A DNA stretch of 64,000 nt. Source: an uncultured Leptospirales bacterium (GTDB lineage Bacteria; Spirochaetota; UBA4802; UBA5550). Within the stretch, counting starts at the first letter, position 1; every line of letters begins with the position of its first letter. Shown here one piece after another: positions 7,760-28,633 of this stretch. Both the position numbers and the translations under genes were made by a program. The DNA lies in contig CAYMPH010000006.1 in NCBI GenBank assembly GCA_964392365.1, positions 3,198 through 67,197 of the forward strand, read 5' to 3'. The notes below the pieces were generated by a model. That model searched no databases. It saw nothing but the letters and a program-made list of their open reading frames with translations, and was not told the DNA's origin.

Positions 7760-7899
7760 ATAAAATATACCGGATATATTAATATCAGAATAAAAATTAA
7801 TATTATAAATATCAATAAATTATTACAAATAAAAAATACTTGATTCAAATTAAATCATTTAAATAATAAATTATTGCATAACTATGAAAGGAAATTAAA

Positions 7900-8151
7900 T
7901 TGTATTATCTTGCAGGTGATCCTACATTCCCTCCTCATTCAACTGAAGGATTCAGCGGATATTTTATTTCCGATAATTTTAATCATTATATGCCGGTTTG
8001 GAATAAACTGGAAAATGCTTTAAATTACTTGAAAAAAAATTCGCTGGAGAGTTTAAATTTCGGGGTTGTTCCTGGTTCTGATGAATTTATGAAAAGAAAA
8101 ATGGAAGAATATAAATTTAAAATAAAATTTATGGATTCTGATAATGCTTGA
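7900..8151 (+). CDS. Hypothetical small protein
   Basis: 83-aa ORF in an otherwise empty intergenic stretch. No recognisable motif. Confidence 0.35.
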   Translation: MYYLAGDPTFPPHSTEGFSGYFISDNFNHYMPVWNKLENALNYLKKNSLESLNFGVVPGSDEFMKRKMEEYKFKIKFMDSDNA

Positions 8152-8198
8152 TTTAAATAAATCAGCTTAATTTGAAATTATAATATATTGGTGAAAAA

Positions 8199-9683
8199 AT
8201 GAAAAACTCACAAGCCAAAAAAGTAATAATAATAGGCGGCGGGCCCGCAGGACTTGCTGCAGGATTGTATTGCAGAAAAGCAGGACTTGATCCTGTTGTT
8301 CTTGAAAAACATACATTGCCTGGCGGCCTTTGCACTAACTGGAAAAGAAACGGCTATTCAATTGATGGATGCGTGCATTTTATAATGGGATCAGGTGTAG
8401 GTTCGCCGTTTCATGAGATGTGGAAGGAACTCGGAGTTTTTGAAGAAATCAATCCGGAAAAAGATTTTGTTTACCACAATGATTTTTTTCATTTCAGATT
8501 TGCAGATGGAAAAGAAGTTACAATAAGCAGCGATCTTGAAAAAATTGAGAATGACCTTGGCAAACAGTTCCCTGAAGACATTAAACAGATTAAAGCATTT
8601 ACTGATGGAGTGAGAAGCCTTAGAGGTTTTACGCCTCCGCTTGATCTTTTAAAGGGCGGGAAAAATCTCTGGCACGCGTTTAAACAATCATTCAGGTATA
8701 TTTTTGCTATATATAAATGGAAAAATATCACGATTGAGCAGTTCTCTTCAAAATTCAAGTCGCGCGAATTGAGAGATGCTTTTGTCCGCCTCTGGTATCC
8801 CGATTACAACATGCTCTACATATTGCTGATCCTTGACTGGCTTAACCGCGGTCTTGCAGGCTACCCTATTGTCACTTCGCTTGGCTTCAGCAAGGTGCTT
8901 GAAAAAAAATTACTGGAGCGGGGCGGCGAAATCCGTTACAATTCGCGTGTTAAAAAAATCATTTTCGATAACGGCAGGGCTGCAGGAGTCATTCTTGATT
9001 CAAATGAAAATATCTTCGGCGACTATATAATCAATACCGCATCATCTCCGTGGTCTATGAACATGATGCTGCCGGGCATTAATATCGGGAAAACTGATTA
9101 CACAATCACTCCTCCTCTTGTGCACATTTCCTATGGAACATCCTACGACTTTTCCGGATATGAATCGTCCGCATGCGGTCTTCAGCTTGAACTCAATCCT
9201 CCGATCAAAATGGCAGGAGAAGACCGGGTTTTCCTGTTAATACATATTTACAATTTTACGCCGAATCTTGCGCCTGAAGGGAAAACTCTCGTAAAGATAA
9301 TGTTTCCATCAGATTATGAATACTGGAATAAACTGAAGCAGCTGGATGATTCTGCATATAAAGATGAAAAAGAAAAATGTTCTGCAGCAGTTCTAAATGC
9401 AATGGAACGCTACTTTCCCGGGTTCAGCAGAACAATTGATATGACTGACATTGCAACTCCGGTAACATTTTACCGTTATACAGAAAATCAGAACGGGTCA
9501 CTCATTGCATGGGGAGCAGTTCCTGCAACACCAATGATGCTTCCCAAAACAATTAAAGGTGTCAGCAATCTTGTACTTGCCGGTCACTGGGTTATGCCTG
9601 GCGGCGGAGTTCCACAGGCTGCAATGAGCGCAAGGCAGGCGGTGCAGCTGATCTGCATGAATGAAAAAATTTACTTGATATAA
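8199..9683 (+). CDS. NAD(P)/FAD-dependent oxidoreductase, phytoene-desaturase (CrtI)-like family
   Basis: N-terminal dinucleotide-binding fold KVIIIGGGPAGLAAGLYCRKAGLDPVVLEK. Length ~490 aa with C-terminal GxWxxPGGG-like LAGHWVMPGGGV. Confidence 0.75.
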   Translation: MKNSQAKKVIIIGGGPAGLAAGLYCRKAGLDPVVLEKHTLPGGLCTNWKRNGYSIDGCVHFIMGSGVGSPFHEMWKELGVFEEINPEKDFVYHNDFFHFRFADGKEVTISSDLEKIENDLGKQFPEDIKQIKAFTDGVRSLRGFTPPLDLLKGGKNLWHAFKQSFRYIFAIYKWKNITIEQFSSKFKSRELRDAFVRLWYPDYNMLYILLILDWLNRGLAGYPIVTSLGFSKVLEKKLLERGGEIRYNSRVKKIIFDNGRAAGVILDSNENIFGDYIINTASSPWSMNMMLPGINIGKTDYTITPPLVHISYGTSYDFSGYESSACGLQLELNPPIKMAGEDRVFLLIHIYNFTPNLAPEGKTLVKIMFPSDYEYWNKLKQLDDSAYKDEKEKCSAAVLNAMERYFPGFSRTIDMTDIATPVTFYRYTENQNGSLIAWGAVPATPMMLPKTIKGVSNLVLAGHWVMPGGGVPQAAMSARQAVQLICMNEKIYLI

Positions 9684-9701
9684 CATCCGGAATAAAATTG
9701 T

Positions 9702-10508
9702 GTGCTCTACATGCTTGAAATAAATAATCATGAAGGCGCCATAGACTGCCACGGAATCACAGGTCATTCAATTCTGCGTATGCATGTACATTTTTACTTG
9801 CTTGATGATCTTTTAATAGACACAGGTACATCGCTTCTCGGAAAAGACAGCATTCCATTTTTATCAAAACAGAGTATACATCAGGCTGCATTAACGCATA
9901 TTCATGAAGATCATTCAGGCATTGCATCATGGGTCAAAAAAAAATTTAATGCGCCTGTTTATCTGAATGAAAAAGATCACAAAGAAGCTGCATCTCCTTT
10001 ATACCTTCCTTTTTACAGAAGAATTGCATGGGGAGCCAGAAAAGCATTTCAGGCAGATATTTTCCCTGCACACCTTGAAACAAAAAACTATAAACTTGAT
10101 ATTATAGCAGCTCCAGGCCATTATCCGAATCATGTGGTTTTTCTTGAAAAAAATAAAGGATGGATTTTCACAGGAGATATATATATCGGCCCTAAGCAAA
10201 ATGTTTCTTTCTCAACAGAAAATACTCTTGATACAATAAAAACATTAAAACATCTGCTTATTTTAGACTGGGATACAATATTCTGCGCACACGCAGGAAT
10301 TAAAACCGGCGGAAAAGAAAAAATGAAGATCAAGCTTGATTTTTTTGAATCAATCCGCTCTCAGGTTGAAGATTTATATAATAAAGGAATTCCATTAAAA
10401 GAAATAAACAAACGACTGTTCCCTAAAAAAGATCTCTGGGAAATATTTTCACTTGGGGAATGGTCATCTTATAGAATGATCAGCACTGCTCTTCCCCTAA
10501 ATAAGTAA
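9702..10508 (+). CDS. MBL-fold metallo-hydrolase
   Basis: HxHxDH motif (THIHEDHSG) plus downstream His/Asp ligands (APGHYPNH, CAHAG). Confidence 0.75.
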   Translation: MLYMLEINNHEGAIDCHGITGHSILRMHVHFYLLDDLLIDTGTSLLGKDSIPFLSKQSIHQAALTHIHEDHSGIASWVKKKFNAPVYLNEKDHKEAASPLYLPFYRRIAWGARKAFQADIFPAHLETKNYKLDIIAAPGHYPNHVVFLEKNKGWIFTGDIYIGPKQNVSFSTENTLDTIKTLKHLLILDWDTIFCAHAGIKTGGKEKMKIKLDFFESIRSQVEDLYNKGIPLKEINKRLFPKKDLWEIFSLGEWSSYRMISTALPLNK

Positions 10509-15795: not shown

Positions 15796-16209
15796 GGTGA
15801 TAATATAGATATTTTATTAATTACAGCATCAGTAATTCTGCTTGCAGCAGTAATTTTATTTCTGTATCAGCATTCTGCTCAGGCAAAACAAATCGATTCT
15901 GTAAATGAAAAAAATCCATTCCAGAATTTTGATAAATTTTCTGATTATAAAAAAATTCCATGCGTAATTTGCGGAACTATTCTGCTAAAAGGAGAAAGGC
16001 TTAAATCCAAGGAATTCAAAGGCGAGAAAGACAGCATAATTAATATAATGGGATGCTATGCCTGTTATGGGGAAAAAGCATCAAAGAAAAGAATTTGCCC
16101 GATCTGCAGACAGGAAATGCCTTTAAAAGGATATCTAATCGGGCGGATGACAACTAAAGACAATGGGAAAAAACACCTGAGTGTTTCAGGATGCAATAAA
16201 TGTTTTTAA
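15796..16209 (+). CDS. Cysteine-rich membrane-anchored protein with four CxxC pairs; no canonical start codon in frame (alternative: 16048..16209 from ATG)
   Basis: The frame is open from the stop at 15793-15795 to TAA 16207. It encodes a TM helix (ILLITASVILLAAVILFLY) and then CVIC...CYAC...CPIC...CNKC. The first ATG is at 16048. The upstream in-frame codons are only ATA/ATT/TTA. Confidence 0.3.
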   Translation, partial: GDNIDILLITASVILLAAVILFLYQHSAQAKQIDSVNEKNPFQNFDKFSDYKKIPCVICGTILLKGERLKSKEFKGEKDSIINIMGCYACYGEKASKKRICPICRQEMPLKGYLIGRMTTKDNGKKHLSVSGCNKCF

Positions 16210-16214
16210 AATTT

Positions 16215-16943
16215 CTATTTCGCAGACTCAATTCTTTTCAGATTTGCTTTTATTGTTTCATTTGCTGAATCCAGAGATAAAGCTTTTTTATAATATTCCG
16301 CTGCTTCACTTTTTTTCCCATTTTTTTCATAACTCAGGCCTATATTATTTATTATTTCAGGCGAATCGCTATTTATGGCCAGAGCAACAGAAAATGCAGT
16401 ATTTGCTTCACCGTATTTCTGAAGATTCATAAGCGCAATTCCAAGAGCATTATAGGAAATATATAATTCAGGATTCACCGAGTTGGCTTTTTCAAAAAAT
16501 TCTTTTGCCTTGGTGAAATTTTTCGAACTCAAGCTTGCCATGCCGAGAACATAATACAGCATCCCGTCTTTTACAGAAGCAAGTCCTCTGTTTGCAGTTG
16601 CTTCAGCATCGCCGAATTTTTTAAATTCAATTAACATAAGTGACTGATCAATATATGCAGTTGGATTTTTTTTATCAATTTCCATACATTTTCTAAAATG
16701 CGCAGATGCGTTTTTTTCATTGCCCATTTTCCAGTAATTATGTGCTGCAAGTAAACGCAGATTATAGTTTGGCGAACCCGCCTTAAAATCATCAGCTCCG
16801 ACAAGATCTTTTGCAACTATTGCAAGCGAATCAGCATATTTTTTATCCTGATATAGTTTTAATGCTTCATCATATGAAGCAAATAACGCTGAAGAAATAA
16901 AAATAATAAATATGGTGATTAGCTTTTTCATTATTATATCCAA
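16215..16943 (-). CDS. Secreted TPR-repeat protein
   Basis: Signal peptide MKKLITIFIIFISSALFA. Repeated 34-aa TPR-like units (AxxYxKALxLDP pattern). Confidence 0.8.
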   Translation of the reverse strand: MDIIMKKLITIFIIFISSALFASYDEALKLYQDKKYADSLAIVAKDLVGADDFKAGSPNYNLRLLAAHNYWKMGNEKNASAHFRKCMEIDKKNPTAYIDQSLMLIEFKKFGDAEATANRGLASVKDGMLYYVLGMASLSSKNFTKAKEFFEKANSVNPELYISYNALGIALMNLQKYGEANTAFSVALAINSDSPEIINNIGLSYEKNGKKSEAAEYYKKALSLDSANETIKANLKRIESAK

Positions 16944-16961
16944 AGATAGATGTTTTATTAA

Positions 16962-17066
16962 GATCCCTCACCCTCAACGGGGGAGGACAGGTGGGGGTGT
17001 AATACTGTAAACTTAGACATTTAGTAGAAATCACCCTCCCCTAACCCCTCCCATCAAGGGAGGGGA
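16962..17066. repeat. GC-rich tandem hairpin element in AT-rich intergenic DNA; G-quadruplex motif on minus strand
   Basis: Hairpin A at 16966-16986: CCTCACCC-TCAAC-GGGGGAGG, 7 of 8 bp. Hairpin B at 17045-17065: CCCCTCCC-ATCAA-GGGAGGGG, a perfect 8-bp GC stem. The minus strand reads GGGAGGGGTTAGGGGAGGG, four G-tracts. Confidence 0.6.
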
Positions 17067-17094
17067 TTAATAATTCCTATGACAAATTTCTTGT

Positions 17095-19806
17095 TTATCT
17101 GCACGCTGCCTGAGCTGCAGCAAGCCTTGCAATTGGAACTCTGAATGGTGAACAGCTGACATAATTGAGACCAACCATATGGCAGAATTCAACTGAGCTT
17201 GGTTCTCCACCATGTTCGCCGCAGATCCCTATTTTCAGATCTTTTTTAACAGAGCGTCCTTTCTCTACAGCCATTTTTATAAGCTGGCCAACGCCGTCTC
17301 TATCAAGAACTCTGAAAGGATCGTTAGCAAGAATTTTTTTATCTACATAAAATGGAAGGAAAGAGCCGGAATCGTCCCTGCTGTAACCGAAAGTCATCTG
17401 TGTCAGGTCGTTTGTTCCGAAAGAGAAAAATTCCGCTTCTTTTGCAATCTCATCTGCAGTAACTGCAGCTCTTGGAACTTCAATCATTGTACCAACATGA
17501 TATTCAATTTTAATTCCGGTTTCCTTCATTACCAGTTCCGCTGTTCTGACTATTATTTCTTTCTGCATTGAAAGCTCTTTAACTGTACCAACAAGCGGTA
17601 CCATTACCTCAGGTTTGGCATCAACACCTTCTTTCTTAAGCTGGCATGCTGCTTCAAAAATTGCTCTTGCCTGCATTTCTGTTATTTCCGGAAAAGTTAT
17701 TCCAAGTCTGCATCCTCTGTGGCCAAGCATCGGGTTGAATTCATGAAGAGCTTCAACTTTAGCTTTAATTCTTTCAACGGTAATTCCAAGTTCCTGAGAC
17801 ATTTCTTTCTGGTTAGCTTCCTCATGTGGAAGGAATTCATGCAGCGGAGGATCAAGCAGCCTGATAGTAACCCCGTAGCCTTCCATTGCCTTGAGTATTC
17901 CGTAGAAATCGTCTCTTTGAATAGGAAGAAGTTTTTTCAATGCTTTCTGTCTTTCTTCAAGTGTATCAGCAAGGATCATTTCCCTCATAGCCTTGATTCT
18001 ATCACCTTCGAAGAACATATGTTCTGTTCTGCAAAGACCAATTCCCTGAGCTCCGAAGTTTCTTGCAATCTGAGCATCTTTCGGGGTGTCTGCATTTGTT
18101 CGCACTGCAAGCTTTTTAACTTCATCAGACCATTTCATTAATGTTTCAAAATCACCAGAAAGCACTGCTTCCATGGTTTTAACCTGACCCATCATCACCT
18201 CACCTGTTGATCCGTTTAGTGAAATGTAGTCGCCTTCTTTTAAAACTATATCTTTAACTTTTATTTCCCGTTTTGAGTATGATATTTCCAGTTCGCCGCA
18301 TCCGGAAACGCAGCATTTTCCCATGCCTCTTGCTACAACAGCTGCGTGAGAAGTCATTCCGCCTCTTTGAGTAAGTATTCCCTGTGCTGCAGACATTCCT
18401 TTCAAATCTTCAGGAGATGTTTCTATACGGACAAGAATTACTTTCTCGCCTCTGTTAGTCCACTCATCTGCATCATCTGCGTTAAATACTATTTTTCCTG
18501 TAGCAGCTCCCGGTGAAGCAGGAAGGCCCTTGGCAATAACTTTCTTTTCTGCTGATGGATCGAATGTAGGGTGAAGAAGCTGATCAAGAGCATTTGGGTC
18601 AACTCTGAGAATAGCTTTCTTTTTATCGATCAATCCTTCTTTTACCATTTCAACTGCGATTCTAACTGCAGCTGCAGCAGTTCTTTTACCGTTTCTTGTC
18701 TGCAGCATCCAGAGTTTTTTGTTCTGAATTGTAAATTCTATATCCTGCATATCTGTGTAATGCTTTTCAAGATTCTTGTAAATTTTAACAAGATCGCCAT
18801 ATGCTTCAGGCATATATTCTTCAAGTGACTGGAACTTTGATTTTCTATCAGATTCAGATACTGAATTGCTTACAGCCCATTTTTTTGAACCTGCAATTGT
18901 TACCTGCTGAGGAGTTCTTATTCCTGCTACAACATCCTCACCCTGAGCATTAACTAAATACTCGCCGTAAAAGGCGTTTTCACCTGTTGCAGGATCTCTT
19001 GTAAATGCAACACCTGTTGCGCAATCATCTCCCATGTTTCCGAAAACCATTGCCTGGACATTTACTGCAGTTCCCCAGCTGTCATCAACCTGATTCATTT
19101 TTCTGTAGAGTATTGCTCTATCATTCTGCCATGATCCGAAAACGGCTCCAACAGCGCCCCAAAGCTGCTGTTTAGGATCTGATGGAAAATCTATATTAAG
19201 AGTTTTTTTAATTATTGCTTTAAATCTTTTTACCAGTTCTTTTAAATCTTCAACAGTGAGTTCAAGGTCAAGCTTAACGCCTTTCTCATGTTTAAGCTCT
19301 TCCATTATTTTTTCAAACGGATCTATTTCATTTTTATCTTCAGGTTTAAGACCAAGAACAACATCTCCGTACATCTGAACAAAACGTCTATAGGAATCCC
19401 ATCCGAATCTTTCATTCCCGGATTTTGCTATAATACCCTTAATGGTGTCATCGTTTAGTCCAAGATTTAAAATTGTATCCATCATCCCGGGCATTGAAGC
19501 TCTTGCGCCTGAACGAACTGAAAGAAGAAGAGGGTTTGACGGGTCGCCGAATTTTGCGCCCATGGTTTCTTCAACCTGCTTCATTGCCTTGTTTACTTCC
19601 GCTTCAAGAGCATCAGGAAATTTTCTTCCGTTTTCGTAAAATTCCGTACATACTTCTGTGGTTATAGTGAATCCTGCTGGAACCGGTATTCCAAGATTTG
19701 ACATTTCAGCTAAATTTGCGCCCTTTCCCCCGAGGAGATTCTTCATATCAGCTTTGCCGTCTGATTTTCCTGCTCCGAAAGAATAAACTCTTTTAAGATT
19801 TGCCAT
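17095..19806 (-). CDS. ppdK: Pyruvate, phosphate dikinase
   Basis: N-terminus [51 protein letters not shown] is diagnostic of PPDK. Phospho-His region [19 protein letters not shown]. 903 aa. GGAGAA Shine-Dalgarno site. Confidence 0.97.
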
Positions 19807-23802: not shown

Positions 23803-23841
23803 AAAAGGATTGCTTTAAAAGCAATCCTTAATTTTTTATTT
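23803..23841. terminator. Bidirectional rho-independent terminator between convergent genes
   Basis: Near-perfect palindrome AAGGATTGCTTT-AAAAGCAATCCTT, flanked by T-runs on both strands (AATTTTTTATTT on + ; TTGTTTTTTAAAGG on -). Confidence 0.6.
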
Positions 23842-28602: not shown

Positions 28603-28633
28603 GGGCGCTGTAAATTCAGCGCCCTGTTTATTA
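28603..28633 (+). terminator. Rho-independent terminator abutting the next gene start
   Basis: GGGCGCT-GTAAATTC-AGCGCCC, a 7-bp GC stem, followed by TGTTTATTA that runs into ATG 28633. Confidence 0.55.

Follow-up and report, generated by a model that had tools for sequence, protein, structure and literature searches.

The spacer downstream of ppdK in a 64 kb stretch of DNA from an uncultured Leptospirales bacterium (contig CAYMPH010000006.1; the whole stretch is referred to here as the window) holds a GC-rich island that an initial annotation had described as a pair of hairpins overlapping a motif capable of forming a G-quadruplex (G4). This study indicates that the island, at 16966-17065, very probably represents one copy, with two arms, of a BoxC/PIT/intrastrand-triplex-motif repeat, a class of dispersed intergenic DNA elements, and not a device dedicated to ppdK. 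The assignment is carried by the anatomy of the element, its membership in a repeat family, the distribution of that family, the mirror rule obeyed by its third block and the turnover of the ppdK spacer among relatives, all of which were observed directly. The GC island after ppdK would thereby be explained as a dispersed structural repeat, which should not be annotated as a terminator, a riboswitch or a G4 regulator.

Anatomy of the two-armed element

The element is intergenic and lies between ppdK (17095-19806, minus strand; Pfam PPDK_N, PEP-utilizers and PEP-utilizers_C), which is upstream of it, and a downstream, co-directional TPR-repeat gene (16215..16931, minus strand, ATG at 16931), in a window with a GC content of about 33%. 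On the ppdK-sense strand, the TAA stop codon (17097-17095) is followed after 29 nt by CCCCTCCC-TTGAT-GGGAGGGG-TTA-GGGGAGGG-TGA, a 31 nt spacer, and then CACCCCCACC-TGT-CCTCCCCC-GTTGA-GGGTGAGG, which ends 34 nt before the ATG of the TPR gene. Two hairpins approximately 60 nt apart had been reported in this 3' region, and both are present at a distance of 58 nt. Hairpin B (17045-17065) has the ppdK-sense form CCCCTCCC-TTGAT-GGGAGGGG with 8/8 pairs, and hairpin A (16966-16986), which reads CCTCCCCC-GTTGA-GGGTGAGG on the same strand, has 7/8 pairs with one C.T mismatch. Each of the two stems contains one A-T pair, so the earlier description of 8-bp stems made only of G and C does not hold.

Two features absent from that earlier description define the element: each hairpin is followed, 3 nt past its end, by a second G-block that is the mirror of the hairpin's own G-arm (GGGAGGGG/GGGGAGGG in arm B; GGGGGAGG/GGTGGGGG in arm A, plus strand), and the two resulting three-block arms are inverted copies of each other. 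Arm B occupies 17031..17065 on the minus strand and consists of the C-block CCCCTCCC (17065-17058), loop 1 TTGAT (17057-17053), G-block 1 GGGAGGGG (17052-17045), loop 2 TTA (17044-17042), the mirror G-block 2 GGGGAGGG (17041-17034) and a trailing TGA (17033-17031). Arm A, which represents the second arm type of the family in degenerate form, occupies 16966..16999 on the plus strand with the C-block CCTCACCC (16966-16973), loop 1 TCAAC (16974-16978), G-block 1 GGGGGAGG (16979-16986), loop 2 ACA (16987-16989), the mirror G-block 2 GGTGGGGG (16990-16997) and a trailing TG (16998-16999). The AT-rich spacer between the arms (17000..17030) is variable.

A scan of the 64 kb for three-block purine-motif triplex units (8-nt blocks, at most one Watson-Crick and at most one Hoogsteen mismatch) returned exactly two units, arms A and B, on opposite strands; none was returned in 20 block-shuffles. 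Arm B (17034-17065, minus strand) carries no Watson-Crick and no Hoogsteen mismatches, and arm A (16966-16997, plus strand) carries one Watson-Crick and no Hoogsteen mismatch. The chance expectation for the hairpin-B pattern alone is 0.03 per window. Combined with the lone G4 motif described below and the shuffle-negative triplex scan, this excludes a chance origin of the element.

The spacer is predicted to fold as RNA into one long imperfect hairpin (-56 kcal/mol, z = -2.85) because arms A and B are mutually inverted copies; with DNA parameters the two tails pair with each other too, leading to a three-stem fold. In agreement with the initial annotation, neither hairpin A nor hairpin B is followed by a proper U-tract, the tails being TTAGGGG../TGATTTCTAC and GATCTTAATA.

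The mirror rule and G-quadruplex potential

The rule that governs the third block was examined in second-arm-type hairpins from phage contigs, with the tail left free. Among the 259 hairpin flanks considered, 39 of the unforced tails were mirror repeats and none was a direct repeat, with one fitting both. In the mirror tails, the base placed opposite the A-T pair of the stem was T in 25, A in 12 and C in 2. These tails fit the requirement of an antiparallel purine-motif triplex, and not that of an alternative Watson-Crick partner or of a G4; the rule is kept even where no G4 results.

A G4 can nonetheless be drawn for arm B. The tract GGGAGGGGTTAGGGGAGGG (17034..17052, minus strand), which comprises both G-blocks and loop 2, contains the four G-tracts reported previously and overlaps the 3' arm of hairpin B at 17052-17034 of the sense strand. 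Scoring of the kind suggested earlier gave a G4Hunter value of 2.63 and a favourable 1-3-1 loop geometry, and the tract is the only canonical motif, (G3+N1-7)x4, in the 64 kb. These properties, together with a sister archaeal motif that goes to G4 after annealing in K+ (PMC8044849), are what would favour a functional switch in DNA or RNA, with competition between the hairpin and the G-tracts of arm B controlling ppdK or the gene that follows. Such a switch is nevertheless very unlikely. Arm A (GGGGGAGGACAGGTGGGGG) has only two G3+ runs and forms no canonical G4, and the second arm type of the family shares this limitation yet is equally conserved. The predicted RNA energies (ViennaRNA) place the G4 alone at -16.7 kcal/mol, against -17.4 for hairpin B, -20.6 for an alternative hairpin and -51.3 for the full fold, and the G4 never appears in the minimum-energy fold when the C-block is present. 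Neither of the two closest relatives examined (L001 and L002) has a canonical G4 at the ppdK-TPR spacer, and the tails of the family obey the mirror rule regardless of G4 capacity, with no strand bias among its units. The functional competition between hairpin and G4 that had been proposed therefore finds no footing in arm A and is predicted to be won by the hairpins wherever a C-arm is present; the G4 is incidental.

A dispersed family in many phyla and in phage contigs

The suggestion that the motif might belong to a dispersed repeat family was borne out for the family at large, which is many-copied in genomes elsewhere, and the motif is therefore neither unique nor without conservation. Copy counts in genomes are lower bounds throughout, and most matches are metagenome-assembled genomes (MAGs), with closed genomes included. 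For hairpin B alone, about half of the matches listed in IMG/VR phage contigs were seen by eye to carry a G-rich third block. The 24-base core CCCCTCCC-N5-GGGAGGGG-N3-GGGGAGGG had 32 exact matches in 23 IMG/VR phage-contig stretches; several of these contigs are multi-copy, and some hold convergent pairs like that of the window. The 27-base core, which adds the trailing TGA, was found in at least 120 stretches of species-representative genomes, and 127 units of the 24-base core were counted by regular expression in the 120 genome stretches listed. Four MAGs carry at least 8, at least 8, at least 6 and at least 5 copies, respectively.

Among the matches listed, the 27-base core spans approximately 13 phyla: Thermodesulfobacteriota/Desulfobacterota, Nitrospirota, Nitrospinota, Planctomycetota (including a closed Ca. 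Brocadia genome), Spirochaetota, Chlamydiota, Omnitrophota, four Patescibacteria classes, Chloroflexota, Actinomycetota, Zixibacteria, Alphaproteobacteria and Gammaproteobacteria. Arm B is 100% identical over 35-37 nt to copies at 24 loci of other phyla, again among the matches listed. Loop 1 has the form T[TC]GA[TCG] in 104 of the 127 units listed, and loop 2 is TTA in 39 of them.

The second arm, CACCCCCACC-NNN-CCTCCCCC-ATCAA-GGGGGAGG, was absent from the search pattern that retrieved the two-armed copies; it is present in 31 copies among the matches listed, the window's included. The whole 100-nt element of the window is therefore to be read as one slightly decayed two-armed copy. Across these 31 members the spacer between the arms is 4-49 nt long and its sequence is not conserved, even within lineages; one further two-armed copy (L226) has a much longer spacer and an element length of 170 nt. 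Two-armed elements of 75-118 nt stand at unrelated loci beside ordinary genes in approximately 13 phyla. Within the Spirochaetota, HGW-Spirochaetae-5, whose rhomboid protein is 54% identical to that of the window, has a full two-armed copy at a different locus.

The surroundings of the family bear on two other explanations. According to crude open reading frame (ORF) calls, units between co-directional genes were in the sense orientation in 14 cases and antisense in 18, showing no strand bias, and the neighbours share no common function: the recurring ones that were tested are ordinary cellular genes (two-component signalling proteins, fumarase, acyl-CoA dehydrogenase), and copies in phage contigs adjoin genes for major head (capsid), sheath, tube, portal and baseplate proteins. 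A structured regulatory RNA, whether a cis-regulator, a riboswitch-like element or a small RNA gene, would account for the strong and significant fold and for arms conserved around a variable centre. The random orientation argues against it, as it does against the regulatory RNA structure raised in the initial annotation, and so do the unrelated neighbours and a pattern of conservation that follows the mirror (triplex) rule and not Watson-Crick covariation. Rfam gave only chance-level matches at E up to 10 for window positions 16000-18000 and no match at the gathering threshold in 12 family loci. This explanation is extremely improbable.

A mobile non-autonomous element of the REP/REPIN-RAYT type (repetitive extragenic palindromes, REPs, and their associated tyrosine transposases, RAYTs) or of the miniature inverted-repeat transposable element type would use the inverted arms as ends for a trans-acting transposase. 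The dispersed, multi-copy and intergenic habit of the family agrees with this, as do the inverted doublets folding into one long hairpin, the conserved loop 1, the copies on phage contigs and the near-identical copies in distant phyla. In addition, some loops read CTTGAT, which resembles the nick or target sites of HUH nucleases (CTTGAT in pC194/phiX; TTGAT in ISDra2). However, no GTAG/GTGG head was found in the flanks of either arm or of the 127 family units, and no target-site duplication accompanies the inverted arms: the best flank repeat averaged 1.43 nt compared to 1.28 +/- 0.28 with flanks permuted, and the TTAAT found on both sides of the window element is at chance level. No transposase or RAYT family recurs among the 1209 neighbouring ORFs of the 120 loci, and the inter-arm spacer is not conserved. 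Mobility genes are not found near the sister element TMECO either (PMC4666352). Mobility of this kind is unlikely.

The REP-type repeat proposed earlier is thus correct as far as the element is dispersed, intergenic, palindromic and many-copied in genomes elsewhere, and incorrect as far as REPs proper are meant. Elements of the REP/BIME/REPIN group (BIME, bacterial interspersed mosaic element) are likewise short, GC-rich, dispersed extragenic palindromes, often in inverted doublets that form a long hairpin. REPs reportedly also stabilise the 3' ends of upstream mRNA, an observation attributed to Newbury et al. 1987. In contrast, the element described here has no GTAG/GTGG head and no RAYT seen nearby, and it alone has the third mirror block; REP sequences are species-specific, whereas the core described here is common to many phyla.

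Several repeats associated with family members were observed alongside. In anammox bacteria (Brocadiales; L203, L237, L240, L251, L282, L297), the two-armed element is inside a larger composite repeat, flanked on its left by a small hairpin module, ..AATTAGGCCTTCGGCAACT.., and on its right by ..TTTGAAATTCCT.. sequence. Other G/C-run hairpins sometimes join it in arrays, and the arrangement resembles a BIME-like mosaic. Conservation of an orthologous locus in the anammox genomes was considered and rejected, the copies belonging to this larger composite repeat. Copies in Thermodesulfobacteriota (L216, L270, L294, L189, L214, L232, L191, L276) show an extra hairpin (CCTCTCCCC-loop-GGGGAGAGG) some 10 nt ahead of the arm and share a conserved downstream stretch, ..TTCTCAACGC..CACTATA... 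The 283 kb jumbo-phage contig IMGVR_UViG_3300042013_000067 (L049, L071, L079, L102, L117) contains extended hairpins of a plain kind, at least 6 in number, that resemble CATAAAG-CCCCTCCC-N5-GGGAGGGG-CTTTATG and lack the mirror G-block; these form a separate repeated family that has an 8-bp core in common with arm B. Phage and plasmid records gave almost no BLAST matches to the consensus element, with low-complexity masking the probable cause.

Turnover of the ppdK spacer among relatives

The best named matches to ppdK are from uncultured Spirochaetota. Two relatives, L001 and L002, permit a close comparison of the locus. The ppdK product of L001 has 99% amino-acid identity to that of the window, and ppdK of L002 has 97% amino-acid and 87% nucleotide identity; the TPR gene call in L001 is 238 aa long. 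Flanks of L001 and the window align at 88.6-89.8% identity up to both edges of the spacer with no alignment inside it, and L002 aligns up to the ppdK edge with nothing aligned inside. The alignment of the window with L001 spans several other spacers and breaks exactly at 16945-17091 (about 17 kb of shared synteny, a small sample).

In place of the window's element, L001 and L002 have two triplex-type units in the ppdK-TPR spacer (L001 7379-7467; L002 2991-3079), with sequences unlike those of the window and arranged back-to-back rather than tails-inward. Unit 1 is TCCCCCCT-5-AGGGGGGA-4-AGGGGGGT on the antisense strand and unit 2 is CTCCCYCT-5-AGGGGGAG-13-GAGGGGGT on the sense strand. Unit 1 of the L001 type has no exact match in the phage contigs, placing it outside the widespread variant. 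In L003-L009, more distant relatives with the ppdK-TPR synteny preserved, triplex units are absent from the spacer and a strong plain hairpin is always present 10-25 nt past the ppdK stop. Across all relatives with this synteny, a strong stem-loop is present 10-35 nt past the stop with unrelated sequences.

A parallel series was found in phages related to the one at locus L175 (L417-L424; sheath 66-70% identical), in which the spacer between the tail-sheath and tail-tube genes is filled in several different ways: L417 has a type-1 arm, L422 and L423 a type-2 arm, L419 two GTAG-headed REP-like palindromes, L421 and L424 a palindrome TGTCATTGCGAG..GGCAATC, L418 a small hairpin and L420 nothing. 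All fillings are directly upstream of a conserved ribosome-binding region, AAACAAGGAGG.

A further explanation is that the element arose in place as an intrinsic terminator or 3'-end stabiliser of ppdK alone, ending or protecting its abundant mRNA, and that the sequence is otherwise arbitrary. The universal stem-loop past ppdK speaks for it, as do the very stable predicted fold of the element, a terminator scan that flags arm B with its weak T-rich tail TGATTTCTAC, and the assorted palindromes with which the related phages likewise fill the post-sheath spacer; intrinsic terminators, too, have a stable GC-rich hairpin soon after a stop codon. However, the same 35-nt arm and the same two-armed element are found at unrelated loci in approximately 13 phyla, so the sequence is neither arbitrary nor ppdK-specific. 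Unlike an intrinsic terminator, the element has no U-tract, consists of two inverted units with extra G-blocks and has a sequence common to hundreds of unrelated loci, whereas an ordinary terminator in the window (23805-23829) is AT-rich with T-runs. Sister PIT elements have no terminator activity in E. coli, according to a statement cited in PMC4666352. A ppdK-specific origin is accordingly quite unlikely, lower in our estimation than mobility, and survives only as a plausible secondary, co-opted role. The stabilisation of the ppdK mRNA 3' end proposed in the initial annotation can be kept in that form, given the strong hairpin in every relative, and it is not what defines the sequence.

Several further readings of the locus were tried and rejected. 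A promoter with the loop TTGAC as -35 and TGATAAT as -10 has a spacing of 18-19 nt and a poor -10, and is not conserved in GC-rich copies. A Shine-Dalgarno (SD)/anti-SD or STAB-SD function (GGGGAGG(G)UGAU against the 16S 3' end) conflicts with the common T-containing tails (GGTGGGGG, GGGGTGGG) and with the lack of sense-strand bias. A three-frame stop module occurs in only about 56 of the 127 copies listed (hand count from loop-2 tallies), no R''/R' core sites of an integron attC are in the sequence, and the neighbours are not targets of a diversity-generating retroelement.

Relation to known triplex-motif repeats

BoxC, the potential intrastrand triplex (PIT) element and TMECO, the intrastrand triplex motif of E. 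coli, are one and the same (PMC4666352, Holder 2015). TMECO has the consensus CCCTCNCCC-N3-6-GGGNGAGGG-N3-GGGNGAGGG with TTA or CCG as loop 2, and its 23 copies in K-12 are always intergenic, show no strand bias and include five inverted pairs that each combine both arm types (PMC4666352). Its single-stranded DNA forms a stable triplex in vitro, its loci are more rearranged between strains than control spacers, and it is not linked to transposases or mobility genes, phages or plasmids (PMC4666352). The K-12 hrpB-mrcB spacer, read directly, consists of the stop, 12 nt, a three-block arm, 14 nt and an inverted three-block arm; this is the layout found after ppdK and thus the same architecture.

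The likeness extends through the class. BoxC/PIT/TMECO elements share with the window's element a C-block, a loop 1 of 3-6 nt, a complementary G-block, a 3-nt loop 2 and a mirror G-block. They share with the family TTA as the commonest loop 2, T or A opposite the A-T pair, a strictly intergenic location without strand bias or a linked mobility gene, and occurrence either alone or in pairs, in which two different arm types stand in inverted orientation on the two sides of a short spacer, often right after a stop codon. Like the ppdK locus, their loci are unusually variable between close relatives. The element differs from TMECO in the length of its blocks, which are 8 nt here (CCCCTCCC/GGGAGGGG/GGGGAGGG and CCTCCCCC/GGGGGAGG/GGTGGGGG) and 9 nt in TMECO (CCCTCNCCC/GGGNGAGGG), in the conservation of loop 1 and the trailing TGA, and in its range: TMECO was reported only in 262 proteobacterial genomes (PMC4666352) and not on phages or plasmids, whereas the present variant is found in approximately 13 phyla and in phage contigs.

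The repetitive potential quadruplex sequences (rPQS) of archaea provide a second comparison, having been shown in vitro to populate an equilibrium of hairpin, antiparallel triplex and G4 that goes to G4 after annealing in K+ (PMC8044849, Chashchina 2021). The rPQS of Methanomicrobiaceae resemble the element in combining a G-tail, a G-arm and a C-arm, in being intergenic without strand bias, and in having a central loop of 3-5 nt and a single A or T between G-runs. In contrast, their blocks run in the opposite order (G-tail, G-arm, loop, C-arm), they occur in a single archaeal family, and they always have four good G-tracts, which arm A does not (PMC8044849).

Several points weigh against the assignment of the element to this class, or against what the class is supposed to do. 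The TMECO pattern had no match in the window on either strand, whereas the E. coli control matched on both, and the element is therefore a sister variant of the class and not BoxC/TMECO itself. Only one element locus is present in the 64 kb of the source genome. A purely structural model does not call for a loop 1 that is nearly identical across phyla. Double-stranded TMECO DNA stayed duplex and in vivo dimethyl sulfate footprinting was negative, and triplex formation has never been shown in vivo for any such sequence, TMECO included (PMC4666352). Statements cited in the same paper hold that purine-motif triplexes do not form in RNA and that PIT elements have no promoter or terminator activity in E. 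coli, both of which weaken a role at the 3' end of the transcript.

Repeats of the BoxC/PIT/TM kind have been known for approximately 30 years without a known function or means of spread, and earlier records came mainly from proteobacteria and cyanobacteria and were reported as unlinked to phages. No paper on them later than Holder 2015 was found in the literature searched, and the string CCCCTCCC is absent from the supplements of PMC4666352. Elements of this kind are known. The variant described here, its range of approximately 13 phyla, its presence in phage contigs and its conserved loop appear undescribed in that literature.

Proposed behaviour and spread

As a repeat of this class, the element would be inert in double-stranded DNA. 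Should one strand be exposed during replication, repair or transcription, each arm could fold into its GC hairpin, with which the mirror block may form an antiparallel purine-motif triplex (G.G-C and A/T.A-T triads). Arm B alone would have a further option, a G4 built from its two G-blocks. Triplex and G4 folding in vitro and the link with instability are taken by analogy from published sister sequences. By analogy with TMECO, such folds would hinder polymerases and promote local rearrangement, which would fit the complete turnover of the ppdK spacer between relatives that are 87-90% identical in nucleotide sequence.

In the ppdK transcript, the very stable hairpins most likely replace the plain 3' hairpin of distant relatives and might impede 3' exonucleases and, in part, transcription. 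The element thus probably also serves as the ppdK 3' hairpin. We infer this co-opted role from the strong hairpin after ppdK in every relative, which makes it plausible, and from the varied fillings of the phage sheath-tube spacer, which provide a supporting parallel.

The 35-nt identity over approximately 13 phyla, the fixed pairing of arms and the presence in phages are hard to explain by structure-driven convergence alone. A bolder and tentative proposal, which we consider possible rather than probable, is that CCCCTCCC-TTGAT-GGGAGGGG-TTA-GGGGAGGG-TGA ... CACCCCCACC-NNN-CCTCCCCC-ATCAA-GGGGGAGG is one homologous two-armed element that has spread horizontally, in phages too, over at least a dozen phyla and is kept near-invariant, loop included, by a conserved protein or mobilisation machinery that recognises the folded arm. 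With the same reserve, candidates for the recogniser would include an HUH-type nuclease specific for hairpins or triplexes, or a factor of repair or replication. If this were true, recognition of the folded arm would supply what the BoxC/PIT class still lacks, a mechanism for its spread and its function. Two questions become directly testable, namely what recognises or copies the elements and whether they drive local genome turnover, and natural series of filled, differently filled and empty sites are available for this purpose in the ppdK spacer and in the sheath-tube spacer of the phages.

Other features of the window and of ppdK homologues

Some ppdK homologues (L006, L007; P0050, P0104, P0105, P0107, P0109, P0117) encode a C-terminal tail of approximately 100 residues, rich in Lys, Ala and Pro, that resembles histone H1 (Pfam PF07382). 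Between the element and the TPR gene, a sigma-70-like site, TTAATA-17-TATAAT, is at 16933-16961 (minus strand), ending 2 nt before the TPR ATG at 16931; its use would leave the TPR mRNA with little or no leader.

Elsewhere in the window, the sequence at 23805-23829 is an ordinary bidirectional terminator with an AT-rich stem and T-runs on both sides, illustrating the normal look of terminators in the source genome. Apart from the element, the window has a single strong GC hairpin, at 28603-28624, with a perfectly paired GC-rich stem of 8 bp (GGGCGCTG-TAAATT-CAGCGCCC). Additionally, positions 7845-9665 are missing from the syntenic relative L001; this segment includes an ORF at 8199-9683 that is similar to FAD amine-oxidases and phytoene desaturases, and GC content rises to 0.395 in the 2-kb bin (8001-10000) into which most of the segment falls.

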